Both the position numbers and the translations under genes were made by a program. This document shows, piece by piece, positions 2,155-48,202 of a stretch of DNA of 64,000 nucleotides. Position 1 is the first letter of the stretch, and each line of letters begins with the position of its first letter. The stretch comes from Lachnospiraceae bacterium (GTDB lineage Bacteria > Bacillota > Clostridia > Oscillospirales > CAG-272), in assembly GCA_024404495.1 (NCBI GenBank), contig JAKSPT010000005.1, positions 6,483 through 70,482 on the forward strand. The letters are read 5' to 3'. The notes beneath the pieces are model-generated. The model ran no database searches and was not told the DNA's origin. It worked only from the letters and a program-made list of their open reading frames with translations.

Positions 2155-3141
2155 TTATTCCCACTCAATGGTCGCGACGGGTTTGAGGGAGATATCGTAG
2201 AGGACGCGGCTGACGCCCTTGACCTCGGCGATGATGCGGTCGCGGATCTTGAAGAGAACGTCGTAGGGGATGGGCTCGGCGGTAGCGGACATCGCGTCGA
2301 CGCTGTTGACGGCGCGGATGATGACCGGCCAATCCTCGGTGCGCTTGCCGTCGCGGACGCCGGTGGAGGTGAGCGGCGGGACGACCGTGAAGTACTGCCA
2401 GACCTTGCCGGCGAGACCGCACTTATCGAACTCCTCGCGGAGGATCGCGTCGGACTCTCTGACCGCCTCGAGGCGGTCGCGGGTGATGGCACCGGTGCAG
2501 CGGACGCCGAGACCGGGACCGGGGAAGGGCTGACGGTAGACCATATTATCCGGCAGACCGAGCGCGGAACCGACCATACGGACCTCGTCCTTGAAGAGGA
2601 GCTTGACGGGCTCGCAGAGCTCGAACTTCAGGTCCTCGGGAAGACCGCCGTCGTTATGGTGTGCCTTGATGCCCGCCTTGGATTCGAGAATATCGGGGTA
2701 GATCGTGCCCTGCGCGAGGAACTTGACGCCCTCGAGCTTTCTGGCTTCCTCGGCGAAGACGTCGATGAAGAGACCGCCGATGATCTTACGCTTCTTTTCG
2801 GGGCTGTCAACGCCTGCGAGCGCGTCGAGGAAACGGTCGGTCGCGTCGACGTAGACGAGGTTCGCTTTCATCTCGTCGCGGAAAACGCGGATAACCTGCT
2901 CGGGCTCGCCCTTACGGAGAAGACCGTGATTGACGTGGACGCAGACGAGCTGATCGCCGACCGCGCGGTAAAGGAGCGCGGCAACGACGGAGGAGTCAAC
3001 GCCGCCGGAGAGGGCAAGAAGGACTTTATCCTTGCCGATCTGCGCGCGGAGCTCCTTGACCTGCTCCGCGATGAAAGCCTCGGCAAGCTCACGGGTATTG
3101 ATGCGCGCCATGGTTTCGGGGCGCACTTCGGTTCTGATCAT
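2155..3141 (-). CDS. guaA: GMP synthase, ATP-pyrophosphatase/dimerisation part only (no glutamine amidotransferase domain in this ORF)
   Basis: PP-loop LALSGGVDSSV. Canonical C-terminus ...KPVATIEWE. GGAGG RBS 10 nt upstream of the ATG. 328 aa. Confidence 0.9.
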   Translation of the reverse strand: MIRTEVRPETMARINTRELAEAFIAEQVKELRAQIGKDKVLLALSGGVDSSVVAALLYRAVGDQLVCVHVNHGLLRKGEPEQVIRVFRDEMKANLVYVDATDRFLDALAGVDSPEKKRKIIGGLFIDVFAEEARKLEGVKFLAQGTIYPDILESKAGIKAHHNDGGLPEDLKFELCEPVKLLFKDEVRMVGSALGLPDNMVYRQPFPGPGLGVRCTGAITRDRLEAVRESDAILREEFDKCGLAGKVWQYFTVVPPLTSTGVRDGKRTEDWPVIIRAVNSVDAMSATAEPIPYDVLFKIRDRIIAEVKGVSRVLYDISLKPVATIEWE

Positions 3142-3161: not shown

Positions 3162-4364
3162 TCAGCAGTTGGTGTAGTTATCGAAATAGCCCTGAACGAG
3201 GACGACGGGAGTGCCCTTATCGCCGGAGCCGCTGGTCAGGTCGCAGAGCGAACCGATCAGGTCGGTGAGCTGACGGGGCGTCGTGCCCTGAGAAGCCATA
3301 TTGCCGACGAGGCTGCCGGACTTTGCGCGGATGGAAGCGGAGATCGCTTCTCTCAGCGCCTCACCGTTCAGATCCTTATAATCGTTGTCGGCAAGGTACT
3401 TCAGCTTCAGCTCGTTGGGGGTACCGATCAGACCGTCGGTGAAGGCGGGAGAGACGACCGGGTCGGCGAGCTCCCAGATCTTACCCTTGGGATCCTTGAA
3501 GGCGCCGTCGCCGTAGACCATGACCTCAACGTGCTTGCCGGTGGCTTCGAGGATGCGCTTCTGGATATCGAGGACGAGGGGCTGGCAGTTTCTCGGGAAG
3601 AGCTTGATCTTATCCTCGGTGGACTTGTTGGAGCCGAGCAGACCGTATCTCTCGTTGCAGCCGCTGCCGTTGACCGGAGCGTTCATGATATCGTCGAGAC
3701 CGCAGACGACCTCTGCGCCCGCTTCCTTCAGGATGCGCTTGGTGCGCGCACGGGTGTGGATATCGCAGGTGAGGACGTTCTTGGTGTAATCGAGGATCGC
3801 CTGTGCGTGGTTCGCGAAGATGATCTCGACTTCGGCGCCCTGCTCACGGATCAGGTTGCCGTAGTATTCGACGTAATCGACGCCGGTGAATTCGTGCTTG
3901 TTGACGCCGAAGAGCTCACGGTACTTTTCGAGGGAAAGGACGTCGGAATAGGGGTTGACGCCCGCCGCGTCGAGCTTGTCGAGGCTGACGAGCTCGTTGC
4001 CGACCTCATCGGAGGGGTAGCTGAGCATCAGAACGACCTTCTTGGCGCCCGAAGCGATACCGCGGAGGCAGATGGCGAAACGGTTGCGGGAAAGGATCGG
4101 GAAGATGACGCCGATGGTGCCGCCGCCGAGCTTGTTCTTCACGTCTTCGGCGATGTTTTCCACCGTTGCGTAGTTGCCCTGCGCTCTCGCTACGATCGAC
4201 TCGGTCAGGGAAATGACGTCGCGGTCGCGAAGCTCAAAGCCTTCCGACTTTGCGGCTTCCAGGACGCTTTCGGTTACGATCACGCCGAGGTCGTCGCCCT
4301 CACGGATGATGGGGCAGCGAATACCGCGGGATACGGTTCCGACTCTTCTGACATTCTGTTCCAT
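3162..4364 (-). CDS. CofE/F420-0:gamma-glutamyl ligase family protein (function in this organism unknown)
   Basis: 400 aa. N-terminal VSRGIRCPIIREGDDLGVIV...ISLTESIVARAQG resembles the F420-ligase (PF01996-type) fold as I recall it. It ends 20 nt before guaA. Confidence 0.5.
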   Translation of the reverse strand: MEQNVRRVGTVSRGIRCPIIREGDDLGVIVTESVLEAAKSEGFELRDRDVISLTESIVARAQGNYATVENIAEDVKNKLGGGTIGVIFPILSRNRFAICLRGIASGAKKVVLMLSYPSDEVGNELVSLDKLDAAGVNPYSDVLSLEKYRELFGVNKHEFTGVDYVEYYGNLIREQGAEVEIIFANHAQAILDYTKNVLTCDIHTRARTKRILKEAGAEVVCGLDDIMNAPVNGSGCNERYGLLGSNKSTEDKIKLFPRNCQPLVLDIQKRILEATGKHVEVMVYGDGAFKDPKGKIWELADPVVSPAFTDGLIGTPNELKLKYLADNDYKDLNGEALREAISASIRAKSGSLVGNMASQGTTPRQLTDLIGSLCDLTSGSGDKGTPVVLVQGYFDNYTNC

Positions 4365-7037: not shown

Positions 7038-7361
7038 ATGTCAAGAAACAAATTACAAACCCTGACGGAGCAGATGTTTTATACCCTTTTGTGTCTGAAA
7101 ACCGAATGCTACGGGCTGGATATTCTGGAACGGATCCCGGCAATGACCGAAAACCGCGTCAACATCGGCTCCGGGACCTTATACACCCTTTTGGAGCAGT
7201 TTGCCGAGGCGGGGCTGATCCGCGAGACGAAGGTGGAGGGCAGACGCCGAAGCTATATCCTCACGAAATCCGGGCTTGAAGTGCTGCAGAACGAGGTAAA
7301 ACGTATCGAGGCACAGCTTGCGGATTACCGTACTGTTTTTGAAAAAGAAGGACGCAACTGA
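7038..7361 (+). CDS. PadR-family transcriptional regulator
   Basis: LCLKTECYGLDILERI...GSGTLYTLLEQFAEAGLIRE...RRRSYILTKSG is a winged-HTH PadR pattern. Confidence 0.85.
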   Translation: MSRNKLQTLTEQMFYTLLCLKTECYGLDILERIPAMTENRVNIGSGTLYTLLEQFAEAGLIRETKVEGRRRSYILTKSGLEVLQNEVKRIEAQLADYRTVFEKEGRN

Positions 7362-7375
7362 AGAAGGAGGTTACC

Positions 7376-8773
7376 GTGATGAAAGACTGTAAAAAAATCA
7401 GCAAGGACTTAAACTTGTACAACCGTCCCGGTTACGAGCGCTTTTTTGAAGAGCAGGCGGAGGAGGGGTGGATGCTCGAAGGCTCGAACGATATTTTCTG
7501 GATTTTCCGCAGAGCGCTGCCGAAAAAGGTCCGGTATTCCGTCACTTATCTGAAAGACGTTACGGTGTTTGATCCGACTCTGACCGATTCCCAGCAGACG
7601 CTCAACGAATTCTGCGAGCGGACCGGATGGGAATTCGTTGCGTCGAGCGGATCCATGCAGGTTTTCCGCACGGAAAAAGCCGATCCCCTTCCCATTGAAA
7701 CCGATCCCCGGTTGGAGATCGAATCTTACCACGCTTCCTTAAAAAAGGGACCTTTGCCGTTATATCTGTTTTTTGTCTTTCTCTCGGTACTCGGTATCAT
7801 TATTAACTTGTTTGCGCTTTTCCTGACACCGATCGACCTGATCCGGTACGGCAACAGATTCATTGCCGTGTTCGCGTACGGTATCGCTGCAAGCATCCTT
7901 CTTTTTGATCTGATCTCATATTACGTCTGGCGGCGCCGCGCGCTCAAAGAAGCGGAACTGACCGGAACGTATCACGAGGCGCCGAAACGGCAGTATGCGA
8001 TCCTGCTGTACGATTTGTTTATGCTTATGGGGATGGCAGCTTTGCTTTCCTGCATCGGTATACGAGTTTGGGGCATAATCGGCGTCGCTCTTGCCATTAT
8101 AGTGGGCTCGATCGGCATCACTCTTTGCATTTCTCTTTTCAAAAAGAAAAAAGCCCGGGCACGGATTTCAAAGCTCGTGACGGTATTTCTGATGATCGCA
8201 CTGCTCGCGGGAATCGTGATCCCGGTCATCTCTTCGGTTGAGAATGCTGTCAGAACAGAAAGAAAACCGCTTGTGATTTATTATCAAGGGATGGAACAGC
8301 ATATTTACGCCGACGAGATCCCTCTTAAAGTCGAGGATCTGATCGAAACCGATTACGATCGGTATTCTTACGAAAACTACCGGAGCTTCTCTTCTTTTCT
8401 CGGCAGAGAATACGGTGCCCGGCAGGATGCACAGTACGGAGAATGGGAGGATAATCCCGAAGTATACTATACCGTGTACGAACTGAATTTTCCGTTCACG
8501 CGCGGTCTGATCGCAAAGACGCTTCTTGTCAATATGAAAGATTGCGGCGAGTACCGGCTTCCGGAAGGGGAAACCGAGGAAAGCTGGCTTTCGGAAGACC
8601 CGGAGCCGTGGGGCGCGGAAAAGGTCTATCGGATGCGTAATGACGACGGAACCTGGTGGAATCAATGGCTGATCTGTTATTCCGACAGGATCGTGTTCTT
8701 TGTTTTTGATGATATGAACGAGTGGACACCGACTCCCGAACAGATGAAGACCGTGACCGAAAAATTATCATAA
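7376..8773 (+). CDS. DUF2812-type polytopic membrane protein (usual PadR partner)
   Basis: N-terminal ...YERFFEEQAEEGWMLE motif typical of DUF2812, followed by several hydrophobic segments. The start could be ATG 7379. GC is lower than in the neighbours by eye. Confidence 0.6.
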   Translation: MMKDCKKISKDLNLYNRPGYERFFEEQAEEGWMLEGSNDIFWIFRRALPKKVRYSVTYLKDVTVFDPTLTDSQQTLNEFCERTGWEFVASSGSMQVFRTEKADPLPIETDPRLEIESYHASLKKGPLPLYLFFVFLSVLGIIINLFALFLTPIDLIRYGNRFIAVFAYGIAASILLFDLISYYVWRRRALKEAELTGTYHEAPKRQYAILLYDLFMLMGMAALLSCIGIRVWGIIGVALAIIVGSIGITLCISLFKKKKARARISKLVTVFLMIALLAGIVIPVISSVENAVRTERKPLVIYYQGMEQHIYADEIPLKVEDLIETDYDRYSYENYRSFSSFLGREYGARQDAQYGEWEDNPEVYYTVYELNFPFTRGLIAKTLLVNMKDCGEYRLPEGETEESWLSEDPEPWGAEKVYRMRNDDGTWWNQWLICYSDRIVFFVFDDMNEWTPTPEQMKTVTEKLS

Positions 8774-15137: not shown

Positions 15138-15164
15138 CCCGGGGATGCGGGGGGGAGACGCGAT

Positions 15165-15245
15165 GTTCTTTCTCTGAGAGAAAGAACCAAAGAGGCATAA
15201 GGGGTAAGTAATGTTTGGGTTCTCCGAATATTGCTCCTTTGCTTC
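15165..15245 (+). repeat. conserved 3'-UTR hairpin element, copy 1 (R1)
   Basis: Perfect 10-bp hairpin gttctttctc-tga-gagaaagaac followed by caaagaggcataagggg...atgtttg...tctccgaatattgctcctttgcttc. It is homologous to 48076-48155. Confidence 0.6.
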
Positions 15246-15379
15246 CGGGGGAGATTATCATTCGTGATCTCCCGCCCCGATCCGCCTCCCTCGGTGTCTT
15301 CGCATTGCGCGCTGCTACGTCAGCTTTATCCGAAGCGCCGCGCCCTCATTCAGTCGGTTCAAAAGGAACAGAAAAAGGC

Positions 15380-15590
15380 GGGGCTGTTGCATCTGCTTCC
15401 GCAAAGCGGAAGCGATCAACAGCCCCCGCAAAACAGCGGTCAGGATTCCGCTGTTTTGCGCAATATACGGCGTTTTTGGCTCGAATAACGCCATTTTTTA
15501 TGTTGCAAATATGCCAAAACGGCGGCGTTCAGCCGCCGAGCCGTATTTGCCGGGGGGGTGTTGCACATTAGTGCAACACCCCCCCGTTTT
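15380..15590 (+). repeat. multi-hairpin repeat element copy A (candidate structured sRNA / MITE- or PATE-like element) ending in a terminator-like hairpin
   Basis: Reverse-complement identical to 25196-25415 except for one indel and the G/C-run length. Contains hairpins P1, P2, P4 and a terminal G7-tgttgcac-atta-gtgcaaca-C7 followed by gtttt. Confidence 0.75.
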
Positions 15591-15752
15591 CTATCTTATT
15601 CTTCTTGGCTCTTCATATTTTTTGGTGTGTGAAGGTTTATTGTTCACCTTGATGCCGAAGCATAGCCTGCCGCGCAGAAGGTTCCGGAAGCCTCGTGGGG
15701 CGGGGGCTTGAGCGCGTAACCGCTGTCCGAAGAGACTGCTCCCCGTGGTGGA

Positions 15753-17414
15753 TCACCGCTGACAAAGCAGTTTTCCCGCCTGCTTTCCCTCCGCGTTGAG
15801 GCGGAAAAGGGCTTCAAGCGTGTCCGCACCGTAATAATCGGCGAAATACGTATGGGTCCGGTTGTCGGGGTCCTCAAACGCCGCGACGGCGTCGGTATTC
15901 GACGTGACGGAGGAGACCAAAACCGTCTTATCCGGGTCCTCCGTGACCGTCAGCGTTCCGTCTTTCCCTATCCCGACCGTGCCGCGCTTTTCAAAAACAT
16001 CGTTTATGGAAAGGAGGGACAGGAGCAGGTCATTCCGATCCGCGTCCGCGTTCCGGAAGCGGTTTGCCCTCAGAGTGCAGGCGTTTCCGAAACCGTCTTC
16101 CGCGGCGAAGTGAAAGCCGTCCCACCAGTCGCCGTCCTGCCGGTAGTATTTCAGGGTGTCCTCGGTGAGGACGACGGTCTCGCTTTCAAGGCAGACGAGA
16201 AAACTTCCGTCGATCAGCGAAAACGAACGGTCCGTTCCTTCTTCGATCAGCCCGTTCAGCGGCAGATCGGTCTGCTTTCCGTAAGCCGAAAGGACCGCGT
16301 ACCTGTACTCGTAATCAAGGAACACCGATCCGGGAGCGTCGGTAAAGGTGAAACGGTATGTTTTTTTCGTCGTTTGTCCGCTGCTGATCAGGCTGTCCAG
16401 AGCCCGTGCGGCTTCCTTGAACCCGGCGAGGGAAACGGTGCGTTCTTCCGGCTGTTCCCAAGCGGGGTCGGGGATACCGAGAGCTTTTCTTCTGTTTTTG
16501 GCGCTCAGGTCGCCGAGTGAGGTGCAGCCGAGCACGCCGTTCCAGTATGCGGGATCGCTCCGGTAAGCGTCGAGTGCTTCCATACAGATCGGGGTATTGA
16601 AAAGCGTCGTGACCTTTACGATGTCCTTGACCGGATAGCCCTTTTCGCTGATCGTGACGGTGCCGACCGCCTCCCATTCGGGCGCGTCAAGGTAGGAGAT
16701 CAGGCGGCTGAAAACGTCCTCGACCGTTTTGACGTTGTACGCGGTGTCGCGGAACCGCAGAACGCCGTTTTCTTCGGCTATCGTGAGGAAAAAGACGTCG
16801 CCCTCCCGTTCCTGCACGTAAGAGCCGCCTTCCGCGAAGAAATAATACCCGGTCGCGGTCGGGACCATCAGCCTGCCGTTCTGTGTGACGGCGGGTTCTT
16901 CGGTCCCGTTCAGGTCTTCCATGCCGATCGACTGCGTCTGCCCGTAAACGGTCAGAGCGATATAAAGCCGGGAGGGCAGCGGGATGACCGCTTCTCCCTC
17001 AATATCGGTAAACCCGATCGTGATCTGCTTTTTCGTCGGATATTGGTCGGCGAAAGTCGAATCGATTCCGGAGATCACCTGCCGGAGGTTTTTGGATTCG
17101 GTGAGAATATCGTATTTTTCTGTTTCGGCAGGCTCGGTCTCCGGTTCGGTCACGGATTCCGTTTCGGAGGTCACCGATTCCGGAGCGTCGGGCGGCCGAC
17201 CGCCTTTTCCGATCTTTTTCCAGTCGATCAGGGTCGGGATCAGGATCAGCGTGAGGACCGCCGCGAGCCCGAGCAGTCCGGCGGCCGTTTTGCGGATCGG
17301 ATGCGATTCCGGCTCTGTCACGGCAAGGGGTTCCGACGCCTCGGCGATCAGAGCGTCCGAGAGCTCGCCCATCGAGGCAAGCAGCGAAAAGCCGCGTTCA
17401 TTGACATTGTTCAC
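15753..17414 (-). CDS. single-pass membrane protein downstream of a sigma factor (anti-sigma / sigma-associated candidate), large extracytoplasmic domain of unknown fold
   Basis: GTG start overlapping the sigma stop. Short cytoplasmic N-terminus (MGELSDALIAEASEP), one TM (AAGLLGLAAVLTLILIPTLI), ~470 aa outside. Confidence 0.45.
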   Translation of the reverse strand: MNNVNERGFSLLASMGELSDALIAEASEPLAVTEPESHPIRKTAAGLLGLAAVLTLILIPTLIDWKKIGKGGRPPDAPESVTSETESVTEPETEPAETEKYDILTESKNLRQVISGIDSTFADQYPTKKQITIGFTDIEGEAVIPLPSRLYIALTVYGQTQSIGMEDLNGTEEPAVTQNGRLMVPTATGYYFFAEGGSYVQEREGDVFFLTIAEENGVLRFRDTAYNVKTVEDVFSRLISYLDAPEWEAVGTVTISEKGYPVKDIVKVTTLFNTPICMEALDAYRSDPAYWNGVLGCTSLGDLSAKNRRKALGIPDPAWEQPEERTVSLAGFKEAARALDSLISSGQTTKKTYRFTFTDAPGSVFLDYEYRYAVLSAYGKQTDLPLNGLIEEGTDRSFSLIDGSFLVCLESETVVLTEDTLKYYRQDGDWWDGFHFAAEDGFGNACTLRANRFRNADADRNDLLLSLLSINDVFEKRGTVGIGKDGTLTVTEDPDKTVLVSSVTSNTDAVAAFEDPDNRTHTYFADYYGADTLEALFRLNAEGKQAGKLLCQR

Positions 17415-17968
17415 GGTTCAATTCCCTCCTTTGTCAGTAGTTCCCGGATCTCTTCCCGCATCCGGCAGAGCGTGACCCGGACCGATCCGGTGCTTTTTCC
17501 GGAAAGACGTGCGATCTCTGCGTGATCGTCCCCGTAAAAATAGCGTCTGACGAAGAGAAACCGCCGTTCCTTCTCCTGCGAGAGCAGGTAGCGCTCGATG
17601 ATTTGCACGGCGGCGCGGTCGTCGATCATCCGGTCGATCGAAAGCGGATCGGGAAGGCACTCCGCCATCTCCTCCGAAAGCGACGCGACGGCGGCGGAAT
17701 GCTTCAGCGCGCTTTTGTCCCTGAGCCTCGTATAGCAGAGGTTCCGTCCGACCTTGACCAGCCACGCGAAAAAGTTGAGCGGCTTTTGCGGCGGGATGGC
17801 GTTCCATGCGTGCAGATAGGTGTCGTTTTCGCATTCCTCCGCGTCCGGGCGGCTTTTCACGATATTCTGACAGATACGGACGAGGCTGCCGCCGTATTTC
17901 TTTTTCGTTTCGAGGATCGCGTCCTCGTTCCGGTCGAAATACAGACCGATGATCTTGCTGTCTTCCAA
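17411..17968 (-). CDS. sigma-70 family (ECF-like) RNA polymerase sigma factor
   Basis: TTG start with GGAGGG RBS. Region 2-like DTYLHAWNAI. Region 4 HTH HAEIARLSGKSTGSVRVTLCRMREEI. Confidence 0.8.
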   Translation of the reverse strand: MEDSKIIGLYFDRNEDAILETKKKYGGSLVRICQNIVKSRPDAEECENDTYLHAWNAIPPQKPLNFFAWLVKVGRNLCYTRLRDKSALKHSAAVASLSEEMAECLPDPLSIDRMIDDRAAVQIIERYLLSQEKERRFLFVRRYFYGDDHAEIARLSGKSTGSVRVTLCRMREEIRELLTKEGIEP

Positions 17969-18062
17969 ACCGTTCCCTCCTTTTCCGAAGAGTTCCTTCT
18001 GCCCGTAAAGACGGCAGAACGCGGGGTTTTGTTACGGATTATTTGAAAAAAGCTTCTGTTCG

Positions 18063-18096
18063 TCAAAAAGCGCCGGAGGATGCAGCCCCGGCGCTT
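18063..18096 (-). terminator. intrinsic terminator of the TetR gene (minus strand)
   Basis: aagcgccgg...ccggcgctt 9-bp stem. On the minus strand it is followed by tttttgacg. Confidence 0.7.
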
Positions 18097-18128
18097 CGTT
18101 TTGCTGACGGTATTTGCCGAAACGGTCG

Positions 18129-18812
18129 TTACGCCTTCGGCGCTTCCTCACGCAGCTTTCCCATCAGAAGCGGCATAACGACGTCTCCGTATTCCGCGAG
18201 GGAATAATCGCCGCGCGAGAGGCACCAGTCGTACAGAATGCTGCGCTCGCAAAGCGCGTAGAGGCGGACGAGCTCGTTGACGGTCTTCGTTTTCACGATC
18301 TCGCCGCGCTCCTGCCCGCGCGTAAAGATGCTGCGAAGCATCCGGTAATACACGCGGGAACGGTCGAGGAACTGCTTTTCCCCGTTCTGCGTGAGCTGCG
18401 CGGCGTACATCCTTGCGAGCAGGTCGATGTCTACTCTTTGTTCAATCATCGAAAACAGCTCGTGCGTCAGATAAAACAGCGTGTCAAGGGCGTTGGCGTC
18501 GGGATCGAGGGAGACCGAAAGCTCCTCGTATTTTTCGTCGAACAGATACGCCATCGTGCCGAGCAGCGCCTCTTTTCCGGAGAAATAGTGGTAAAACGAC
18601 CCGCGGGAGGTTTTGGATTCCCACAAAATCTCCTCGATCGTCGTGTTTTCATAGCCGTTTTCGTAGAACAGCTTCCACGCCGCGTCAACGATGCGGCTTT
18701 TCGTGTTTTTCGGGTTTTTCACGTTTCTCGTATGCTCTCCGTTCTGCTTTTCGTTCTTGTTTTTATCATAACATAAACCGGGGAAAAAAGCAAGCCGCTC
18801 CGAAAAAAACAC
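18129..18812 (-). CDS. TetR/AcrR-family transcriptional regulator (true start probably downstream of the annotated Met)
   Basis: KSRIVDAAWKLFYENGYENTTIEEILWESKTSRGSFYHYFSGKEALL is the TetR N-terminal HTH. Confidence 0.85.
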   Translation of the reverse strand: MFFSERLAFFPGLCYDKNKNEKQNGEHTRNVKNPKNTKSRIVDAAWKLFYENGYENTTIEEILWESKTSRGSFYHYFSGKEALLGTMAYLFDEKYEELSVSLDPDANALDTLFYLTHELFSMIEQRVDIDLLARMYAAQLTQNGEKQFLDRSRVYYRMLRSIFTRGQERGEIVKTKTVNELVRLYALCERSILYDWCLSRGDYSLAEYGDVVMPLLMGKLREEAPKA

Positions 18813-18858
18813 AGCCTCCGGAAAAACCGGGGGCTGTGCCGTTCAATAGAGGGAAAGA

Positions 18859-20364
18859 TCAGTCGTCGATATCCTTCGCGGTGGCGGCGTCGAAGATCGC
18901 CGTGACCTTTTCGGAGGGCTGTTTATCAAGCAGAGTGACGATCACGGAGACCGCCATGCTGACGAGGAAGCCGGGAACGAGCTCGTAAAGACCGGTGGGC
19001 CCGGAGAGGAAGATAAGCCACAGGACGTCAACGAGCGCACCGGAGATCACGCCTGCGACGGCGCCCTTGTAGGTGAAGCGTCTCCAGAAGACAGAGAGGA
19101 TCACGACCGAACCGAAGGCGGAGCCGAAGCCTGCCCACGCGTTTTCGACCATATTCATGATCGCCTGCGCGCCCGAGCCCTTGGAGCTCGCGATGAAGTA
19201 CGCGATGACCGCGATCACGAACACGACGCCGCGGCCGATCCAGAGGGTCTCCTGATCGGAAGCCTTTTTGCGAAAGACGGGCTTGTAGATATCGGAGGTG
19301 AAGGACGAGGAGGCGACGAGGAGCTGGCTGTCCGCCGTGGACATCGAAGCGGCGATGATCGCCGAGAGGAGGATGCCGGCGAGTACGGGCGGGAAGAGCT
19401 TTCTCGCGAGGGTGACGAAGATCAGCTTCTGATTGCCGTCCGGAAGAAGCTCCTCCGCGACGAGCATTCTGCCGAGGTAGGAGATGACCATAACGGCGCC
19501 GAGCGAAAGAACGACCCAAACGATGGCGACGATCGCGGATTTTTTGACCATCGACGGCTTTTTGATCGCCATGAAGCGGACGAGGATATGCGGCATACCG
19601 AAGTAGCCGAGACCCCACGCGAGACCGTTGATGATCTCAAGCGGCGTCGCGGAGAAGACGTTTGAGGTAAAGGAGCAGGACACCGCGGTTTCACCGTCCA
19701 TATAGGTGTAAACCTTGGCGAGGAGCGACGTGTCGAGGTCCTTGGTGAGAACGATGACGATCGGGATCGCGAGAACGGCGATCAGCATCAGCGTTCCCTG
19801 GAAGAAGTCGGTCCAGCAGACCGCCTTGTACCCGCCGAGGAAGGTGTAGACGATCAGGATCGCCGCAAAGACGAGCATTGCGGTCCCGGTGCTGATCTGC
19901 GGGAAGATCGTCGTGAAGACGCTTGCGCCCGCGACGAAGCTGGAGGCGACGTAAACGGTGAAGCAGACGAGGAAGACGATCGCGCAGACGATCTGCAGGG
20001 TCAGGCTCTTCGTCGCGAAGCGGTTGGAAAGATACTGGGGAAGGGTGATCGAGTCGTTCGCGGCTTTGGAGAATCTGCGGAGCCTGCGGGCGATCAGAAT
20101 CCAGTTGGCGGCGGTGCCGAGCGCAAGACCGATCCCGATCCACGCCTGCCCCATACCGAAGGCGAGCAGCGAGCCGGGGAGACCCATCAGCAGCCGCGCG
20201 CTCATATCGGACGCCTGCGCGCTCATCGCGGTGACCCACGGTCCCATCGAGCGTCCGCCGAGGAAGTATTCCTTTTCTCCGCTCTGCTTTCTGCCGCGGA
20301 TAAAGAAGAAAATGCCGATGCCGAGCATCAGGACGAAATAGAGTATGAATACGGTCAGTTCCAT
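18859..20364 (-). CDS. sodium:solute symporter family transporter (PutP/PanF-like)
   Basis: 501 aa, polytopic. N-terminal EYFLGGRSMGPWVTAMSAQASDMSARLLMGLPG is the SSS signature. Confidence 0.8.
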   Translation of the reverse strand: MELTVFILYFVLMLGIGIFFFIRGRKQSGEKEYFLGGRSMGPWVTAMSAQASDMSARLLMGLPGSLLAFGMGQAWIGIGLALGTAANWILIARRLRRFSKAANDSITLPQYLSNRFATKSLTLQIVCAIVFLVCFTVYVASSFVAGASVFTTIFPQISTGTAMLVFAAILIVYTFLGGYKAVCWTDFFQGTLMLIAVLAIPIVIVLTKDLDTSLLAKVYTYMDGETAVSCSFTSNVFSATPLEIINGLAWGLGYFGMPHILVRFMAIKKPSMVKKSAIVAIVWVVLSLGAVMVISYLGRMLVAEELLPDGNQKLIFVTLARKLFPPVLAGILLSAIIAASMSTADSQLLVASSSFTSDIYKPVFRKKASDQETLWIGRGVVFVIAVIAYFIASSKGSGAQAIMNMVENAWAGFGSAFGSVVILSVFWRRFTYKGAVAGVISGALVDVLWLIFLSGPTGLYELVPGFLVSMAVSVIVTLLDKQPSEKVTAIFDAATAKDIDD

Positions 20365-20552
20365 ATTTGTGAATTATTCATTCCTTTCAATAGGATGTTG
20401 TTTATCATACCACACCAAACGGCAGAATGCAATACGGAATTTGTTCTATACGACAATCTATACAGAAACAGCAAAAAACAGAAAAAACAAGTCTATATAG
20501 CATAAAAGCGAATATACAATACCGAAGAAGACAATATAAATAAAATGAAATA

Positions 20553-20592
20553 CACAAAAGAAAAATCCGCCGTTCCGTTCGGAACGGCGGAT
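20553..20592 (-). terminator. intrinsic terminator of the PL8 gene (minus strand)
   Basis: atccgccgttcc-gttc-ggaacggcggat. The minus-strand hairpin is followed by ttttcttttgtg. Confidence 0.8.
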
Positions 20593-20603
20593 GGTCGATG
20601 CCA

Positions 20604-22463
20604 TTACAGGATCACGCAGGTCCCGGCTTCGCCGTGAAGCAGGGTCTTTCCCTTGTAAATCAGGTCGCCCGCCTCGTGGAAGACCGCCATCACGGTCCCG
20701 TCGGCAAGCTCGATCGCCTGCAGCGCGGGGGTGTTGGAGAGCACCTTCGCGCCCGCCTTCTTTCCTCTCGGGGAAACGGCGTAGGCGTAGGAATCCTTCC
20801 CGGGCTTTACGGGGATATAGGCAAGGAAGACCTTGCCGGTCTCGTGCGTGTAGGCTTCCTCGAAGCTGTTGCGCTTCCACGAGCCCTCTCTCTTTTCGAC
20901 CTTCGCGACGATCTCGGTTTCGGGATCGAGGGTTTCGTAGGTAAAGCCGCCGTTCGAGGCGCGGTGCTTTCCGATCCTCGGAGAGACGGGGAGGCACTGA
21001 TCGAGCGTCGTGGTCAGCGGCTTTCCGTTCTCCTTTTCGTCGCGGATGCCCGCGCCGAGCGAGACGAGATTGCCGTCGAAGACGAAGAACGCTGTCATCA
21101 GGGAAATGCCGTCGTGCTCGGGCTTCTCGAAGACGATGCCGCGGTCCCCGCTGACGAGTCCGCCGACGTGGTCGTTCGGGAGGGGCAGACACCACCAGTT
21201 GCGGTGGGCAAGCAGCTCGGCGTCGGTCTCGATCCTTGCGGTCGTGCCCGGAACGTGCGCCCAATCGTAGATCGGGTTGAGGTCGTAGTATTCGTTGCCG
21301 CGGCGCATCAGGCAGTAATGCGTGCCGTAGGACATATTGTAGCAGAGCTCGCCCTCGGAGTTGCAGATCTCGGCGTCGTACTGATCGTTCGCGTGGCACT
21401 TGATGCCGAAGTAGCTGCCGTTCTTTCTCTGGGAAAGGAAGGAAATGCGCGGGAACCAGACGGTCGCCGGGTAGGGATCGGTTTCGTCCTCGACCGCGCC
21501 GCGGTCGATATCGTGAACGAAGGCAAGCAGCTCGTCGCGGCGGGGAAGGTCTTCGATCGTTGCGAGCATACGGATGCCGTAGATCATTTCCACGCGGTTG
21601 AGCGTACCGCGGCGGGAGATCTCTCTGCCGACGCCTGCGTAATCGAAATAGCCGTGGATCATCATTCTTCTCTGTCCGTCGAGGACGTGCTGCAGGAAGA
21701 CATCAATCCGTTCCCTCGGGAAGGCATAGGAGGTGCCGCTGAAGAGCCAGACGAGCTGGGAAAGGTCAAAGGTATAGGAGGCGCCGTAGCCGCCGGAATA
21801 CCATCTCGGACCGTGCTGATAGAAGGAGCCGTCGGGCTGGATGCCTTCATTCGTGTACGCCATTTCGAGCTCGATGCGCGCCTCGCAGGCGCGGAGCAGC
21901 TCTGCGTCCTCGGAAAGGAGGGCGTGGCGGATCGAGTTGTAGATGCCCCAGATCAGGTTCGCGCCGCCCCATCTTGTAACATCGGAACGGGTTTTGATCG
22001 AACCGCGGCTGACGAGTCCGATTGTCTTTTCCGTTTCTTCGGGTGTCAGGTATTCGCGGAGCAGCAGACCGATATCGCCGATATGGCTGGGCATCCCGAT
22101 GTCGTTATGCCACCAGTTCGGGTTTCTGTAATCGTGGATCAGCCAGTAACGGAGTGCGCCGAGCGCCTTTTCACGGAAGGCGGCGTCGGCAGCAAGGCGT
22201 TCTTTTCCGCCGTTGACGAGCATGGATTCCAGCCGGTGATAATGCTGCGATGCCTGCCATGCGCCGGTACGGCTCATATCGGTGAAGTCGATATCGGGCC
22301 AGGTACAGGTGTCCGGCTCCGGACCGGGGACGAGCCCGTTTACCAGCTTGTCGGCGGTGTCGGTCATCACGCCCTGCACGTTTTCGCGGAAGCAGCCGCT
22401 GAAAAGCAGGTCGACGTAGCGATCCCTGATCGCGAGAAGGTCTTTCATATTCCGATCGTTCAT
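20604..22463 (-). CDS. polysaccharide lyase family 8 (xanthan/hyaluronate/chondroitin-AC lyase family), apparently cytoplasmic
   Basis: Start moved to MNDRNMKDLL (GGAGGGAA RBS 5 nt upstream). Motifs NPNWWHNDIGMP, GANLIWG, GIQPDGSFYQHGPRWYSGGYG are typical of PL8. No signal peptide. Confidence 0.75.
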   Translation of the reverse strand: MNDRNMKDLLAIRDRYVDLLFSGCFRENVQGVMTDTADKLVNGLVPGPEPDTCTWPDIDFTDMSRTGAWQASQHYHRLESMLVNGGKERLAADAAFREKALGALRYWLIHDYRNPNWWHNDIGMPSHIGDIGLLLREYLTPEETEKTIGLVSRGSIKTRSDVTRWGGANLIWGIYNSIRHALLSEDAELLRACEARIELEMAYTNEGIQPDGSFYQHGPRWYSGGYGASYTFDLSQLVWLFSGTSYAFPRERIDVFLQHVLDGQRRMMIHGYFDYAGVGREISRRGTLNRVEMIYGIRMLATIEDLPRRDELLAFVHDIDRGAVEDETDPYPATVWFPRISFLSQRKNGSYFGIKCHANDQYDAEICNSEGELCYNMSYGTHYCLMRRGNEYYDLNPIYDWAHVPGTTARIETDAELLAHRNWWCLPLPNDHVGGLVSGDRGIVFEKPEHDGISLMTAFFVFDGNLVSLGAGIRDEKENGKPLTTTLDQCLPVSPRIGKHRASNGGFTYETLDPETEIVAKVEKREGSWKRNSFEEAYTHETGKVFLAYIPVKPGKDSYAYAVSPRGKKAGAKVLSNTPALQAIELADGTVMAVFHEAGDLIYKGKTLLHGEAGTCVIL

Positions 22464-22628
22464 TTCGTTCCCTCCGTTTCCGGCATACGTCCGGAAAAGA
22501 TTTTTGATACTACGATTATAACACGGTTTCTCCCGAATTGCAATACCGGGAAGCGGAACGGAACCGTGTTTGTACACGGAACCGGCATTTTTCCGACGTC
22601 TGCGGTCGGAAAAAAACCCGAATTCCAC

Positions 22629-22656
22629 TTGAAAACGCGAAAAAGTTTGCTATAAT
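22629..22656 (+). promoter_or_regulatory. sigma-A-type promoter for the GH38 gene
   Basis: TTGAAA 22629-22634, 16-nt spacer, TATAAT 22651-22656. Confidence 0.55.
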
Positions 22657-22722
22657 GAAAGCAGAACCGTTTGCCGTATCTCATAGAAAGGAAGCTTTCG
22701 TCAAACGAAAGCAGACACGACG

Positions 22723-25182
22723 ATGAAAAAGAAAACGATCTGCTACCTTGTCGGCAACGCGCACCTCGACCCCGTCTGGCAGTGGCGCTGGCAGGAAGGG
22801 AGCGCCGAGGCAAAGGCTACCGTCCGTTCCGCGCTTGACCGGATGAAGGAGTTCCCCGAATTCCGCTTCGTCTGCTCCTCCGCCTCCGTTTACCGCTGGG
22901 TCGAGGCGTTTGCGCCCGGAATGTTTGAGGAAATCAAAGAACGGATCCGGGAGGGACGCTGGACGGTCGTCGGCGGATGGCACGTTCAGCCCGACTGCAA
23001 CCTGCCCTCCGGAGAGGGTTTTGCAAGACAGTCCCTTTACAGCCAGCGCTGGTTTTCGGAGAAGCTCGGCGTTACGGCGAAGGTCGGCTACAACGTCGAC
23101 TCCTTCGGTCATAACGCCAATATGCCGCAGATCTTAAAGAAGTCCGGGATGGATTCCTATATCTTCATGCGTCCTGCACCGCACGAAAAAGAGATGGAGA
23201 GCGACCTCTTCGAGTGGGTCGCCCCCGACGGCTCCTCCGTCACGACCTATCGGATCCTCGACCCGTACTGCTTCAATTTCGACACGCCCGAAAAGACCGA
23301 ACGGCGTTTCGACTACCTTGACGAAGCAACGAGGACCGATCTCGGTTTTCTGCCGGTGTTCTACGGCGTCGGGAACCACGGCGGCGGACCGACGGTCAGA
23401 AACCTTGAGCTTCTGCGCGGCTACGCGGCGGCGCATCCCGAAAAACGCCTGATCTATTCCGACCTTTCCGACTTCTTTGCCGCCGTCAGGCAAAGCGGGA
23501 AGCCGGTCCCGTCCTACTCCGGCGACCTGCAGCATCACGCTGCCGGATGCTACGCGACGGTGTTCCCGGTCAAGAACGGCATCCGCCGCGCGGAGAGCGA
23601 GCTGATCGCCGCCGAGGCTTTTGAGCGGATGGCGGCGGCGTTCGGCGCGGGGAAGGATTCCCGCGAAAAGCTGGCGGAGGCGTGGCAGAACGTCTGCTTC
23701 TGTCATTTCCACGACTCGATGGACGGCTGCTCGATCCGCGAGGTCTACGACGACGCCGCGCTGATGCTCGGTCACGCGCGGAATATCGCCGCGGTTGCCG
23801 AGAACAACGCCCTCCAGACCCTTTCGTGGCGGATCGGTACCGACCGCAGGGAAAAGGGGCTTCCGGTCGTGCTTTTCAACCCGCATTCGTTCCCGGTAAA
23901 GGCGCCGGTGCAGATCAACCGCGCGGCGGGAAGCGTCGTTACGGCATCCGGGGAACCGGTTCTTTGTCAGCCGGTCCTCTCCTCCACCTACGAGTGTACG
24001 TGGCGGCAGGATACCCTGTTTGAGGCGGAGGTCCCCGCGCTCGGCTGGGCGGTCTATTATGCGGGCGGGGACAAACCGAAGGAAGATGTCCCCTCTGCGG
24101 TCAGTGCGAAAAAGTGGACCGGATTCCGTACCGCGAACGAACGCGGCGGAACGGTGCTTGAAAACGGGCTCGTTTCGATCCGCTTCGAGGAATACAGCGG
24201 CTATATCACCTCCTTTTTCGATAAACGCACCGGAAAAGAGCGGATCGGCGGACGCGCCGCCGTTCCCGTCGTCATCGACGAATACTACCACGATACGTGG
24301 AGCCACGGAAAAACCTTCTTCACGGACGAGATGGCACGCTTCTCGGACGCCGAGGTCACCGTTACCGAAAACGGCCCCGTCCGTGCCTGCGTCAAGGTCG
24401 TAAGCCGATATAACCGTTCGACGCTGACCCAGTATTTTTCGCTGACCGCGGATTCCGACGTTCTGTCGGTGCGTCTCGTCGCGGACTGGCACGAGAAGCA
24501 CAAGATGCTGAAGATCGCTTATCCGATGGCACTGACCGATCCGACGGCGTTTTACGAGATCCCCTTCGGCGTCGTCGAACGCCCCGCCGACGGGGAGGAG
24601 GAGCCGGGGCTTCGCTGGACCGCCGTCCGCGGAAACGAAGGCGGGTACGCGCTGATCAACGACGGCACCTATTCTTCAAGCGTCGGAAACGGGACCTTGT
24701 ACCTGACCGCGCTGCGCAGCCCGATCTACGGGGACCACGGCGGTCCGCGCACGGAGGAAAGCGAATATACCGATCAGGGACGCATCGAATTCCGTTACGA
24801 GCTGTGCTCCTTCGGGCGGGACGACGGCTTTTCAACGCTCGTCCGGCGCGCCGCCGTTCTGAACAAGCCCCTCACGCCCGTCGTTGAAACGTGGCATCCC
24901 GGCGATCTTCCGGAAAAAACGGGAACCGTTTCCTGCGACCGTGAAAACGTCGTCGTTTCCGCGCTCAAGAGAAGCGAGGACGGAAGCGGTACGGTTTTGC
25001 GGATTTACGAGACCGACGGCAAAAAGACGGAGGTCACGCTTTCCGGCGCGGTACTGCCCTCTCCGCTGACCGCGGAGCTCGGCGCGTTCTCGGTCGATAC
25101 CTATTATCTGAAGGACGGAAGTGACCTTTGGGAAAAGGTCCTGCTCACGGAATTCCCGATCGGGACGGAAGAAGACCGGTAA
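22723..25182 (+). CDS. GH38 alpha-mannosidase, cytoplasmic
   Basis: N-terminal YLVGNAHLDPVWQWRWQEG, GGWHVQPDCNLPSGE, YNVDSFGHNANMPQIL are GH38 catalytic-domain motifs. 819 aa, no signal peptide. Confidence 0.9.
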   Translation: MKKKTICYLVGNAHLDPVWQWRWQEGSAEAKATVRSALDRMKEFPEFRFVCSSASVYRWVEAFAPGMFEEIKERIREGRWTVVGGWHVQPDCNLPSGEGFARQSLYSQRWFSEKLGVTAKVGYNVDSFGHNANMPQILKKSGMDSYIFMRPAPHEKEMESDLFEWVAPDGSSVTTYRILDPYCFNFDTPEKTERRFDYLDEATRTDLGFLPVFYGVGNHGGGPTVRNLELLRGYAAAHPEKRLIYSDLSDFFAAVRQSGKPVPSYSGDLQHHAAGCYATVFPVKNGIRRAESELIAAEAFERMAAAFGAGKDSREKLAEAWQNVCFCHFHDSMDGCSIREVYDDAALMLGHARNIAAVAENNALQTLSWRIGTDRREKGLPVVLFNPHSFPVKAPVQINRAAGSVVTASGEPVLCQPVLSSTYECTWRQDTLFEAEVPALGWAVYYAGGDKPKEDVPSAVSAKKWTGFRTANERGGTVLENGLVSIRFEEYSGYITSFFDKRTGKERIGGRAAVPVVIDEYYHDTWSHGKTFFTDEMARFSDAEVTVTENGPVRACVKVVSRYNRSTLTQYFSLTADSDVLSVRLVADWHEKHKMLKIAYPMALTDPTAFYEIPFGVVERPADGEEEPGLRWTAVRGNEGGYALINDGTYSSSVGNGTLYLTALRSPIYGDHGGPRTEESEYTDQGRIEFRYELCSFGRDDGFSTLVRRAAVLNKPLTPVVETWHPGDLPEKTGTVSCDRENVVVSALKRSEDGSGTVLRIYETDGKKTEVTLSGAVLPSPLTAELGAFSVDTYYLKDGSDLWEKVLLTEFPIGTEEDR

Positions 25183-25195
25183 GCATTCATACCGA

Positions 25196-25415
25196 CAAAA
25201 GGGGGTGTTGCACTAATGTGCAACACCCCCGGCAAATACGGCTCGGCGGCTGAACGCCGCCGTTTTGGCATATTTGCAACATAAAAAATGGCGTTATTCG
25301 AGCCAAAAACGCCGTATATTGCGCAAAACAGCGGAATCCTGACCGCTGTTTTGCCGATGCGAAGCATGTGGGCTGTTGATCGCTTCCGCTTTGCGGAAGC
25401 AGATGCAACAGCCCC
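25196..25415 (-). repeat. multi-hairpin repeat element copy B (inverted relative to copy A)
   Basis: The reverse complement equals 15380-15590 except that cacatgcttcgcatcg replaces ccc (net +13 nt) and the G5/C5 arms replace G7/C7. On the minus strand the terminal hairpin is followed by ttttgtc. Confidence 0.75.
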
Positions 25416-25447
25416 TTTGGTTTGGCGACAGGAATGCGGGGACGGGA

Positions 25448-25831
25448 TTACAGGAACCACGCGGCTGCAGAGATCACGGCGAGCATGATCCCGACGACGA
25501 AATAAAAGGGGGAAAGCCAGTTCGTCGTGCCGTAGATCTCAAGGATCCCGCGGACGAGAAAGCCGACGGTCAGGGTGGCGACCGAGGCGTTTTCGGAAAA
25601 CAGGAAAAGAACGGGATAGTTCGGCTTCAGGGACCGGGCGCTGACCGTTTCCCAGAAGAACCGTCCGAACAGAAGGGGAAAGAGGAAGGCGTAGACCATG
25701 AACGCCGACCACACCCCGTGGGAAAAATACTCGTAAACGGCGCCGAAAAGCAGGGTCACGAGCGAGGCGGGCAGATAGAAGCGGGAGAGCGCCTTTGCGA
25801 TTTTGGAAAAATCAATATCCGATGTAGACAA
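25448..25831 (-). CDS. small polytopic membrane protein, unknown function
   Basis: 127 aa with about four hydrophobic segments. It overlaps the upstream gene end by 20 nt. Confidence 0.45.
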   Translation of the reverse strand: MSTSDIDFSKIAKALSRFYLPASLVTLLFGAVYEYFSHGVWSAFMVYAFLFPLLFGRFFWETVSARSLKPNYPVLFLFSENASVATLTVGFLVRGILEIYGTTNWLSPFYFVVGIMLAVISAAAWFL

Positions 25832-37974: not shown

Positions 37975-38107
37975 TTTCGTGTCCTCCTGTATTTTTCGGT
38001 GTCCTTATCATACAATACCGTTATGAACCCGAAAAAGCCGCTTTATGAAATAATTGTAAACAGAAGCAGACGCTTTGACCGGGGAAAGCAAAAAAGGAGC
38101 AGAAAAA

Positions 38108-38329
38108 ATGAAGAAGCAGAAAAAGAAAGAGCAGGCGCCGGCGAATCCCGCCCGCTTTCCGGACTCGATGGAGGGCGTGGAAGAAGACGCCTTCCTCGCG
38201 GAAAACGCCCTCCCCGACCGGACCTCGCATATCCCCGCGATGTCGCCCGAATGGACGAAGCCCACGAACCTCGACGATACCCCCAAGCCGCCCTACTACC
38301 CGGAGGACTATCCGGAGCTGTATCGGTGA
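38108..38329 (+). CDS. small Lys/Pro-rich hypothetical protein
   Basis: AAGGAG RBS before MKKQKKKEQAP. 73 aa. No recognisable domain. Confidence 0.3.
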   Translation: MKKQKKKEQAPANPARFPDSMEGVEEDAFLAENALPDRTSHIPAMSPEWTKPTNLDDTPKPPYYPEDYPELYR

Positions 38330-38858
38330 ATTATTCGGCTCTTTTTCTTTGGAGAAAAAGAGCCTTGCAGAAAAAGAACACCGCAGGGGGAGGAAGAGAC
38401 GCCTCAATCGCATTTTTGAAAAAATGCGTTCTCGGCATCATTCTCCCTCCCCCTACGGCGACCCCCTCTCTCTTTTTGCGTTCGCGATCCGGTACCGTTC
38501 GGTGCGGTAACTATCGTTCTCCATAAGAAAGCGGGGGTTAGTCCGGTAAGCGAACGGAAGAGAAAGATAGCAAGAGGGCAAGCCGTTCCCCCGCGCCGGA
38601 AGTTGCGGAGCAACTTCGGCACTTGCCGCTTGCGGCAACGTGCGGATTCCAAAGGGAGGGCGCGGTTAGATGCTTTTTCCGAAAACTTGTTTTTGGAAAA
38701 AGTATCGTCAGCGCCGCCCTTTGGGGTTTTCTTTCTCGCAAGCCTCTTTCTTTCTCAAAAGAAAGAGGCAATTTCCGTTTTGCGAATGAATAAAAGTGTC
38801 TGTTTTATGAAAAAATCCACAAAATCAAAAAACGTGCGGGCGGTTTTTTGCACAATGA

Positions 38859-38887
38859 TTGACAAAACGCGCCGGATATGGTACAAT
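38859..38887 (+). promoter_or_regulatory. sigma-A promoter of the second GH38 gene
   Basis: TTGACA 38859-38864, 17-nt spacer, TACAAT 38882-38887. Confidence 0.6.
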
Positions 38888-38951
38888 GCAGAAAAGCCGG
38901 TAAGCCGGACTCTCTGAAAAGGAGCGGCGCACAGACGCGCCCAAAAATGCC

Positions 38952-44957: not shown

Positions 44958-45119
44958 GGGACACCCTCCTTCCGATAAAAGACGGCTCTTACAGCCGTGT
45001 AAAGATTTGTTATCCAAAATGTAAATTTCGCGGGATTCCTCTTGTAATTTGTGCAAATCTTATATAAAATAAGGATAAAGAACACTTTTGCCCCTGAAAG
45101 GAAAACGCACGGAGCACTT

Positions 45120-48054: not shown

Positions 48055-48075
48055 CGGACGAGGGAACGAGGAAAT

Positions 48076-48155
48076 GTTCTTTCCCAACCGGGAAAGAACC
48101 AAAGGGGCATAGGGCTGAACGGATGGTTTGTCTCTTCGGATATCGCTCTCCTGCT
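48076..48155 (+). repeat. conserved 3'-UTR hairpin element, copy 2 (R1)
   Basis: gttctttccc-aacc-gggaaagaac followed by caaaggggcatagggc...atggtttg...tctcttcggatatcgctctcctgctc. The stem differs from copy 1 by a compensated T-A to C-G pair. Confidence 0.6.
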
Positions 48156-48159
48156 CATA

Positions 48160-48202
48160 AAAAATAATGGGACTGCGGCAATCGCAATCCCATCTTTTTT
48201 AT
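48160..48202. terminator. bidirectional intrinsic terminator between radA and the EamA gene
   Basis: atgggactgcg-gcaat-cgcaatcccat, flanked by aaaaaataa on the left and ctttttt on the right. Confidence 0.7.

Follow-up and report, generated by a model that had tools for sequence, protein, structure and literature searches.

A dispersed, modular hairpin repeat with a terminator-like 3' end in a narrow group of uncultured Clostridia

What kind of element is a 210-nt stack of hairpins that occurs twice, in opposite orientations and almost letter for letter the same, in one stretch of a clostridial genome? The stretch, referred to here as the window, comprises 64,000 nt of contig JAKSPT010000005.1 (GenBank assembly GCA_024404495.1, positions 6,483 to 70,482 of the forward strand) from a Lachnospiraceae bacterium, a spore-forming (Spo0A), glycan-degrading Clostridium-class organism with a GC content of about 58%. 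A first reading made from the letters of the window had proposed that the element is either a small RNA (sRNA) or a hairpin-ended mobile element of the PATE or MITE type. What emerges from the analysis is a dispersed, non-coding repeat family; no promoter was found that would support a stand-alone sRNA, and the hallmarks of MITEs and PATEs were weak or absent. We lean toward the view that the element is a small interspersed repeat of the SPRITE or BOX kind that would act as a terminator in its sense direction and as a 3'-end cassette.

Copy A occupies positions 15380-15590 of the window (+) and copy B positions 25196-25415 (-). The two copies match each other with a blastn E value of 5e-88 and are 99.5% identical outside of a net 13-nt indel, where B carries the 15 nt ACATGCTTCGCATCG in place of CC in A, and outside of the G/C arms of the last hairpin, P5, which are G7/C7 in A and G5/C5 in B. 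As the sequence-only reading had it, these are the only two differences in the alignment. A repeat search of the window recovered the copies as two inverted arm pairs, one of 46 nt and 100% identity (15380-15425/25370-25415) and the other of 132 nt and 99% identity (15428-15559/25223-25354), and also detected the P5 palindrome. The similarity has an abrupt 5' edge at GGGGCTG (GGGGCTGTTGCA) beyond which the flanking DNA is unrelated, which agrees with the claim that it begins exactly at the first hairpin, P1. The motif GGGGSTGTTGCA has six exact occurrences in the window, every one of them within A or B, where 0.27 would be expected for a scan allowing one mismatch. Blastn found no third copy in the 64 kb.

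Is the element restricted to this locus? A search for the P2 hairpin across GTDB, with each species represented by one genome, returned 26 loci. The whole element is present in only three of them, which are all contigs (L017, L021 and L023) of one metagenome-assembled genome (MAG), JAZLIW01 (Eubacteriales SGB_4027); these copies are 85-91% identical and each has unrelated flanks. The remaining 23 loci were rejected as chance matches, being ordinary A-tract/hairpin/T-tract terminators with unrelated flanks in unrelated phyla; P2 has the shape of a generic bidirectional terminator, and the same stem occurs in these 23 loci of other phyla. Pseudo-peptide probes of the repeat were run against a collection of 5.8 billion proteins, in which the sense-frame probe had zero candidates and the antisense probe a single match, P0001, which led to L028, a metagenome contig in ENA. 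Only the 3' part of the element is present in L028 (the P3 region, P4, P5 and the T-tract; 128.8 bits to a 3'-module covariance model); the position of P1 and P2 is taken by a near-consensus promoter for the downstream gene, TTGACA-N17-TATCAT. The search for further copies in related genomes that the earlier reading had called for thus yielded four more, for a total of six copies at unrelated loci with unrelated flanks from three sources (the window, JAZLIW01 and L028), a multi-copy state that MITEs share.

Other collections were empty. Two scans of JGI metagenomes, with a 22-nt core and with a degenerate 3'-module pattern, gave 0 matches, as did scans of IMG/VR viral contigs with each of the P1, P2, P5 and 3'-module patterns, and blastn gave no match in plasmids and phages. 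The 3'-module covariance model revealed no extra copies in the window (with filters off) or in 21 loci. Contig L029 (ENA ERZ27247195 k141_494503) represents a lineage of the same species that is 94% identical to the window in nucleotide sequence, with a GH38 protein that is 98% identical. Its sequence stays colinear with that of the window up to and including the GH38 gene beside copy B. Since L029 ends within P5 of copy B (3758-3800), site B is occupied in a lineage that has diverged by about 6%. Orthologues of the GH38 gene gave no clean empty site, as the relatives at 69-71% identity lack conserved synteny, and exact-protein look-ups of further flanking genes returned nothing useful. Judging from the sequences recovered, the element belongs to a dispersed modular repeat family and is not a locus-specific RNA gene. 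Several genomes carry the family, yet public data contain few copies of it; it occurs in the short gaps at the ends of genes in a narrow group of uncultured Clostridia and has not been described before.

We rejected the possibility that the repeat is coding, since each frame is interrupted in at least one copy and the 13-nt indel puts all of them out of register, as the sequence-only reading had argued from the indel. Spurious open reading frames (ORFs) are nonetheless called over the repeat at 15215-15571 (+) and 25104-25460 (-) in the window, at 5604-5978 in L021 and at 1491-2942 in L023, and the 43-aa database "protein" P0001 is a translation of the repeat. The starts of real neighboring genes are over-extended into it as well (L017 928-2292 and L023 1491-2942).

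If the element does not encode a protein, what holds it together? Folded as RNA, the sense strand has a minimum free energy (MFE) of -131 kcal/mol, compared with -73 +/- 4.7 for dinucleotide shuffles (z=-12.4). The antisense strand (z=-13.6) and the sense strand folded as single-stranded DNA (ssDNA; z=-13.0) are equally extreme. The hairpins P1, P2, P4 and P5, which had been folded on paper in the earlier reading, were recovered both by the MFE fold and by RNAalifold on the six copies. Two further stems appear in the computed fold, the long-range GCAATATACGGC/GCCGTATTTGC and TTTTGGC/GCCAAAA, and they make the P3/P4 region one three-way domain. The element is made of two modules, a 5' module (P1 and P2) and a 3' module (the three-way domain with P4, followed by the palindromic P5 and a T-tract), and the A/B indel falls exactly at the P1/P2 junction within the first. 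Its parts in the window are listed below; the whole element has the ends GGGGCTGTTGCA...TGCAACASCCCC.

15380..15590, + strand: copy A, whole element including the T-tract
15380..15426, + strand: P1 of A, a 47-nt compound hairpin, GGGGCTGTTG...CAACAGCCCC enclosing GCTTCCGC-AAA-GCGGAAGC
15428..15459, + strand: P2 of A, a 12-bp hairpin, GCAAAACAGCGG-TCAGGATT-CCGCTGTTTTGC, arranged as A-tract/stem/T-tract
15460..15550, + strand: core domain of A, closed by GCAATATACGGC/GCCGTATTTGC and including the variable P3 loop region
15474-15480/15513-15519, + strand: TTTTGGC/GCCAAAA stem of A
15520-15538, + strand: P4 of A, CGGCGGC-GTTCA-GCCGCCG
15551..15590, + strand: P5 of A, palindromic hairpin (G7/C7) with T-tract, intrinsic-terminator-like in the sense direction
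25196..25415, - strand: copy B, whole element
25370..25415, - strand: P1 of B (repeat search, alignment)
25355..25369, - strand: 15-nt insertion ACATGCTTCGCATCG specific to B, at the P1/P2 junction (CC in A)
25323..25354, - strand: P2 of B
25232..25322, - strand: core domain of B (long-range stem, P3 region and P4), 100% identical to that of A
25197..25230, - strand: P5 hairpin of B (G5/C5) with T-tract

Rfam (Rfam 15) gave no match at the gathering threshold over the whole window, and the best sub-threshold match, at 29.8 bits against a cut-off of 52.5 bits, was to an unrelated Streptomyces sRNA. We also considered P5 as a parS-like site, with TGTTGCAC/GTGCAACA as half-sites, and rejected this, as 4 nt split the half-sites and the sequence covaries rather than being conserved.

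The substitutions among the copies follow the fold. Outside P5, variable columns of the full-length copies make up 5 of 114 paired positions (4%) and 25 of 57 unpaired ones (44%; Fisher p=6e-10). P5 is more variable, and at four pair positions both sides have changed with pairing kept, for example from GGGGGTGTTGCAC/GTGCAACACCCCC to GGGGTTGCTGCAC/GTGCAGCAACCCC. In the 3' module, 94% of cells are paired, compared with 35-48% in slid controls, and the covariation score of 0.140 exceeds those of all 500 shuffles and all slid controls. One-sided changes in firm helices are G.U pairs on the sense strand in five of five cases and would be A.C on the other strand, which is suggestive of a structure whose importance lies with one strand, whether RNA or ssDNA (G.U 5:0, p about 0.03 one-sided).

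Between the two hosts, the element is conserved well beyond the level of coding DNA. Every comparison of full copies puts the 5' module at 92-98% identity, and the MAG copies are 85-89% identical among themselves and 87-91% identical to the window copies. The sole homologous protein pair found between the window and MAG sources is 38% identical, and the nearest non-conspecific GH38 protein among the 5.8 billion proteins reaches 71% identity. Old insertions that had simply decayed neutrally would not give these figures, and this reading is excluded. Either purifying selection acts on each copy, or the copies have been struck from a conserved master.

The next question is what such an element would do in the places where it is found. 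In both A and B, the one terminator-like site called is P5 with its T-tract, on the sense strand. The hairpin of A has 16 pairs and is followed by TTTTCTATCT, and that of B has 13 pairs and is followed by TTTTGTCGGT; no such site was called on the antisense strand of either copy. The T-tract is retained in L021 and L028 and lost in L017, and the hairpin of L023 is degenerate.

Copy A is situated between convergent genes whose products are a secreted protein of 460 aa (stop at 15137) and a protein of 553 aa (stop at 15753), the latter downstream of an ECF sigma factor gene. Copy B is similarly situated between convergent genes for a GH38 alpha-mannosidase (22723-25182, +) and a 127-aa membrane protein (stop at 25448), and the GH38 gene reads into P5 of copy B, which starts 19 nt past the GH38 stop codon. 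The L021 copy, also between convergent genes, fills almost the whole space between the two stop codons: 4 nt remain on the P1 side, and the second stop is in the tail just beyond P5. Each of these three copies is co-oriented with one neighbor. The earlier claim that every copy lies just 3' of an operon and in the orientation of that operon fits these three but not L017, L023 and L028, which are antisense to both neighbors in tandem gene pairs. In L017 and L023, just 38 and 29 nt, ribosome-binding site included, separate P1 from the next start codon, so there is no room for a promoter. In five of the six copies, a gene reads into the P5 end with its stop no more than 19 nt away, a point that the sequence-only reading had not made; this count and that of the three convergent sites come from a small sample. 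The conserved tail contains a TGA stop (TTTTCA on the sense strand) in L021 and L028, and from the sequence it is apparently the element that provides the neighboring gene with its stop codon in both.

One mechanism that would fit these arrangements is that, upon transcription in the sense direction, P5 and its U-tract end the transcript and the stacked hairpins shield the new 3' end. We infer that the element would terminate transcription and stabilize 3' ends in cells in this way. Between convergent genes it would act as a terminator and insulator cassette. Within tandem gene pairs only the antisense orientation would be tolerated, in which the element has no canonical terminator, because it would terminate in the sense direction only. 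Dispersal of the element would presumably depend on a trans-acting enzyme or on recombination.

The same observations on pairing bear on an alternative in which the element is a functional structured RNA, either a 3'-untranslated-region-derived or independently transcribed sRNA of about 210 nt or a protein-binding scaffold, with each copy expressed and acting in trans or on its host mRNA. Conservation of stems relative to loops, covariation in P5 and wobble pairs on the sense strand only are all consistent with an RNA, as is conservation between hosts that is far above that of coding DNA, and the terminal terminator would set a discrete 3' end. No promoter-like site was found upstream of or inside A or B on either strand, however, and the similarity begins at P1. 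The sequence-only reading had noted that the copies share no upstream promoter, and this observation held; no shared or predicted promoter is there to express the stand-alone sRNA that it had proposed. Half of the copies are antisense to both neighbors, L028 lacks the whole 5' module, no Rfam match was obtained for the locus even at E<=10, and the unpaired segments, which would carry the seeds, are the most variable. We regard a functional RNA of this sort as doubtful, and place it behind the next alternative.

That alternative is a non-autonomous element mobilized as ssDNA, either an IS200/IS605-type PATE or a REPIN-like element, with a Y1 HUH transposase, encoded elsewhere in the genome, recognizing P1 and P5 as single-strand end hairpins and with the constraint reflecting the transposition competence of master copies. 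PATEs of the IS200/IS605 group are defined by a hairpin at each end and by the lack of both terminal inverted repeats (TIRs) and target-site duplications (TSDs) (PMC7290912). The element fits this definition in that it has hairpins at both ends (P1 and P5), no TSD and only a vestigial TIR, and its size is close to the 200-270 nt of such elements (PMC7290912). The extreme fold as ssDNA and the strand-specific, G.T-tolerant pairing (5:0) would suit a single-stranded intermediate, the near-invariant 5' module resembles a recognition end, and the MAG copies are as distant from one another as they are from the window copies, as expected of copies from a conserved master. With regard to REPIN-like elements, P1, with its two inverted halves of about 23 nt, resembles the long hairpin of a REPIN, and REPs, BIMEs and REPINs are likewise extragenic palindromic repeats at gene ends and between genes of operons. 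The REP is a 20-40 bp unit with a GTAG or CGTC tag (PMC3733652); proposed roles for REPs include termination, attenuation and mRNA 3'-end stabilization, and their persistence is vertical (PMC3733652, PMC3337134, PMC3049150).

Several tests for membership in these mobile families came out the other way. The P1 end has no conserved target tetra- or pentanucleotide, with no 4-mer in common among the P1-side flanks (AAAGGC, ACCAAA, GATCTT, GAAAAA and CAGAAC). The P5-side flanks have TTTT in four of five cases, indistinguishable from the terminator T-tract; read on the other strand as AAAA, these flanks could be a target, but the strand test favors the opposite strand. Neither A nor B contains GTAG, CTAC, CGTC or GACG, and in the other copies these occur sporadically inside P4 variants, never at the hairpin feet where REP tags would be. 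The five helices form a fixed array and not a REP doublet; REPs, BIMEs and REPINs are mobilized by RAYT (TnpA-REP). A survey by Pfam of 40 ORFs, together with gap ORFs, identified no TnpA, TnpB, IscB or other transposase in the window, and no transposase or RAYT was seen among the ORFs inspected in L017, L021, L023 and L028, so the proposed check for tnpA, tnpB or iscB genes with matching ends had no positive outcome. Two tyrosine-recombinase-like genes, at 707-1693 and 43959-45056, are in other contexts, neither of them near the repeat. A and B, separated by 9.6 kb, point in opposite directions and thus show no bias toward one replication strand at this locus, and copy B is fixed at the same site in the lineage that has diverged by about 6%. 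We consider an ssDNA element unlikely, although it is the least unlikely of the alternatives; it is mainly a statement about how the repeat disperses and is partly compatible with the terminator cassette toward which we lean.

The hallmarks of MITEs are weak or missing as well. MITEs such as RUP, Correia and Nezha are also short, non-coding, base-paired, multi-copy and intergenic (PMC10969869, PMC3049150), and they can provide neighboring genes with terminators or stop codons (PMC10969869, PMC3049150). The present element differs in having no TSD, with no direct repeat of at least 3 nt in A or B at any boundary shift and only chance-level 4-mers at inconsistent offsets in the flanks of L021 and L017. 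It is not AT-rich (54-56% GC, compared with 57.6% for the window), and no insertion sequence with matching ends was found. The related inverted arms that had been noted at the two ends are real in A and B, where GGGGSTGTTGCA matches at 11 of 12 nt, but the match declines to 10/12 in L021 and 8/12 in L017 and there is no parent insertion sequence with which to compare it. With the decaying TIR, the missing TSD and the lack of a conserved target at the P1 end, the hallmarks of a PATE or MITE in the earlier proposal are weak or absent; the part of that proposal that saw a mobile or repeat element is supported by the dispersal at unrelated loci.

The placement of A and B raises one further possibility, namely that they are the terminal inverted repeats of a single unit of about 10 kb (15380-25415), either a composite transposon or a segment inverted by recombination. 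The two copies are inverted, with their P1 ends outward, and bracket 9.6 kb, a point absent from the sequence-only reading, and their 99.5% identity would permit homologous recombination or gene conversion. The bracketed genes encode an ECF sigma factor, a putative anti-sigma factor, a TetR regulator, a sodium:solute symporter, a PL8 lyase and the GH38 enzyme. With no transposase or recombinase among them, we rejected both a composite transposon and a segment dedicated to inversion; the other four copies are solitary at unrelated loci, and the unit has no flanking direct repeat. Such a unit is very improbable.

Which known repeats, then, does the element resemble most? The pneumococcal SPRITE and BOX elements are terminator-like and modular hairpin repeats, respectively, and are concentrated at the 3' ends of convergent genes (PMC3049150). 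Like SPRITE, the element is a dispersed non-coding Firmicute repeat with a long GC-rich stem followed by a U-rich tract (here P5, with 13-16 bp), and it lies between convergent genes in three of six copies. SPRITE differs in being a single 18-bp duplex with a long U-rich tract, whereas the element described here is about 210 nt long with five helices, of which the terminator is the last module only. The host lineage and base composition also differ (here about 55% GC), and between such unrelated hosts sequence homology would not be expected; the likeness is one of kind. BOX elements are modular, tightly folded multi-hairpin sequences of about 200 nt in which modules are present or absent and the ends are partly complementary (PMC3049150), and they affect cotranscribed genes or are expected to (PMC3049150), as would be the case for the element here. 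The counterpart of this modularity is seen in L028, where the 3' module is alone, and in the A/B indel at a module junction. No middle module that varies in tandem number, like boxB, was seen in the element, and its known copy number is tiny. By analogy, SPRITE and BOX would be its closest counterparts in kind and in probable function, without membership by sequence.

A number of points weigh against a terminator and 3'-end cassette. The antisense orientation in three of three tandem contexts is not significant (p=0.125), and the orientation and strand statistics are in general weak, coming as they do from six known copies, with the G.U bias of 5:0 reaching p=0.03 in a one-sided test. A palindrome such as P5 can gain paired changes by intrastrand template switching without selection at the RNA level, and events of the template-switching type do happen in the element, because the inner P1 loop of L017 has been flipped from AAA to TTT. 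By eye, P2 and P4 are terminator-like in the antisense direction (A-tract/stem/T-tract), which fits poorly with read-through in L017 and L023. Mobility is deduced solely from dispersal, as no empty site, TSD or partner transposase was found. Finally, the near-invariant 5' module has no part in the cassette model. It is possible that the element is not selfish and that the host maintains it as a cassette of structured RNA or ssDNA specific to one strand. Binding of a conserved factor would then keep the 5' module at 92-98% identity among Clostridia of roughly genus-level divergence, and the element would be copied to gene ends as a portable unidirectional terminator, insulator or RNA-stability device. 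A portable cassette class of this type has not been described in Clostridia. We view this idea as a long shot, ranking after the ssDNA element and before the functional RNA.

Other features of the same DNA deserve mention in their own right. A non-coding motif of about 85 nt occurs at 15160-15245, after the gene for the 460-aa secreted protein, and at 48075-48160, after a gene for a 468-aa RadA/Sms-like ATPase; the two occurrences are about 72-80% identical and the two upstream genes are unrelated. At the core of the motif is a hairpin of 9-10 bp, which reads GTTCTTTCT/AGAAAGAAC in one occurrence and GTTCTTTCCC/GGGAAAGAAC in the second; the two show a compensatory change of T-A to C-G, and CCAAAGRGGCAT follows the hairpin. 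The motif is probably not coding, as the short ORFs that follow it differ. Rfam gave no match for it, and it is separate from the 210-nt repeat. In L030 and L032, which are loci of GH38 orthologues in two related genomes, the space downstream of the gene contains other repeats, two copies of CCCTGCACCCTCATCCTGCGGAGACGCGG at 7190-7340 in L030 and two copies of GACGTACGGCTGAAAACGTTCGGCGGGA at 8630-8760 in L032. Since each of these loci has its own short direct repeats, different small repeats fill the gene-end spaces in this host group. A pair of near-identical terminator-like hairpins, CAAAACAGCGGCG.TATCGCCGCTGTTTTGC, lies 225 nt apart at 5513-5767 of L016 (Clostridia MAG JAUNJX01) and flanks hairpin-rich DNA; the pair is unrelated to the 210-nt element and may be another small repeat.

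Elsewhere in the window, positions 1-2100 are the end of an integrated mobilizable element with a lower GC content at third codon positions (GC3) and no sequence in common with the repeat. Its ORFs are helix-turn-helix/Xis-like (4-246 and 263-574), tyrosine-integrase-like (707-1693) and NikA-like (1690-1989; a mobilization protein, PF21983, E=1.6e-8), and it abuts the 3' end of the gene for the C-terminal part of GMP synthase (2155-3141, -). Genes for a PadR regulator and a DUF2812 membrane protein at 7038-8773 have a GC3 of 0.60-0.64, compared with 0.73-0.86 around them, and may have been acquired horizontally. About 1 kb at 37975-38951, between divergent genes for an inorganic pyrophosphatase and a second GH38 protein, has no convincing ORF; it contains many weak hairpin matches to the covariance model and a promoter-like site, TTGACA...TACAAT, at 38858-38888, and has no Rfam match.

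Proteobacteria and streptococci have well-studied small interspersed repeats, whereas those of uncultured gut Clostridia are barely cataloged. The hairpin-stack family described here is a clean new example with strong structural constraint and strand asymmetry, and holds no conceptual surprise. Its practical consequences are of several kinds. The repeat breaks short-read (de Bruijn) assemblies, as illustrated by L029, which ends inside P5, and it generates spurious ORF calls. Inverted copies such as A and B could drive inversions. If a partner enzyme exists, the family would define a new non-autonomous element, and if the proposed role as a terminator or insulator is true, the repeat would offer a compact natural part for the synthetic biology of Clostridia.

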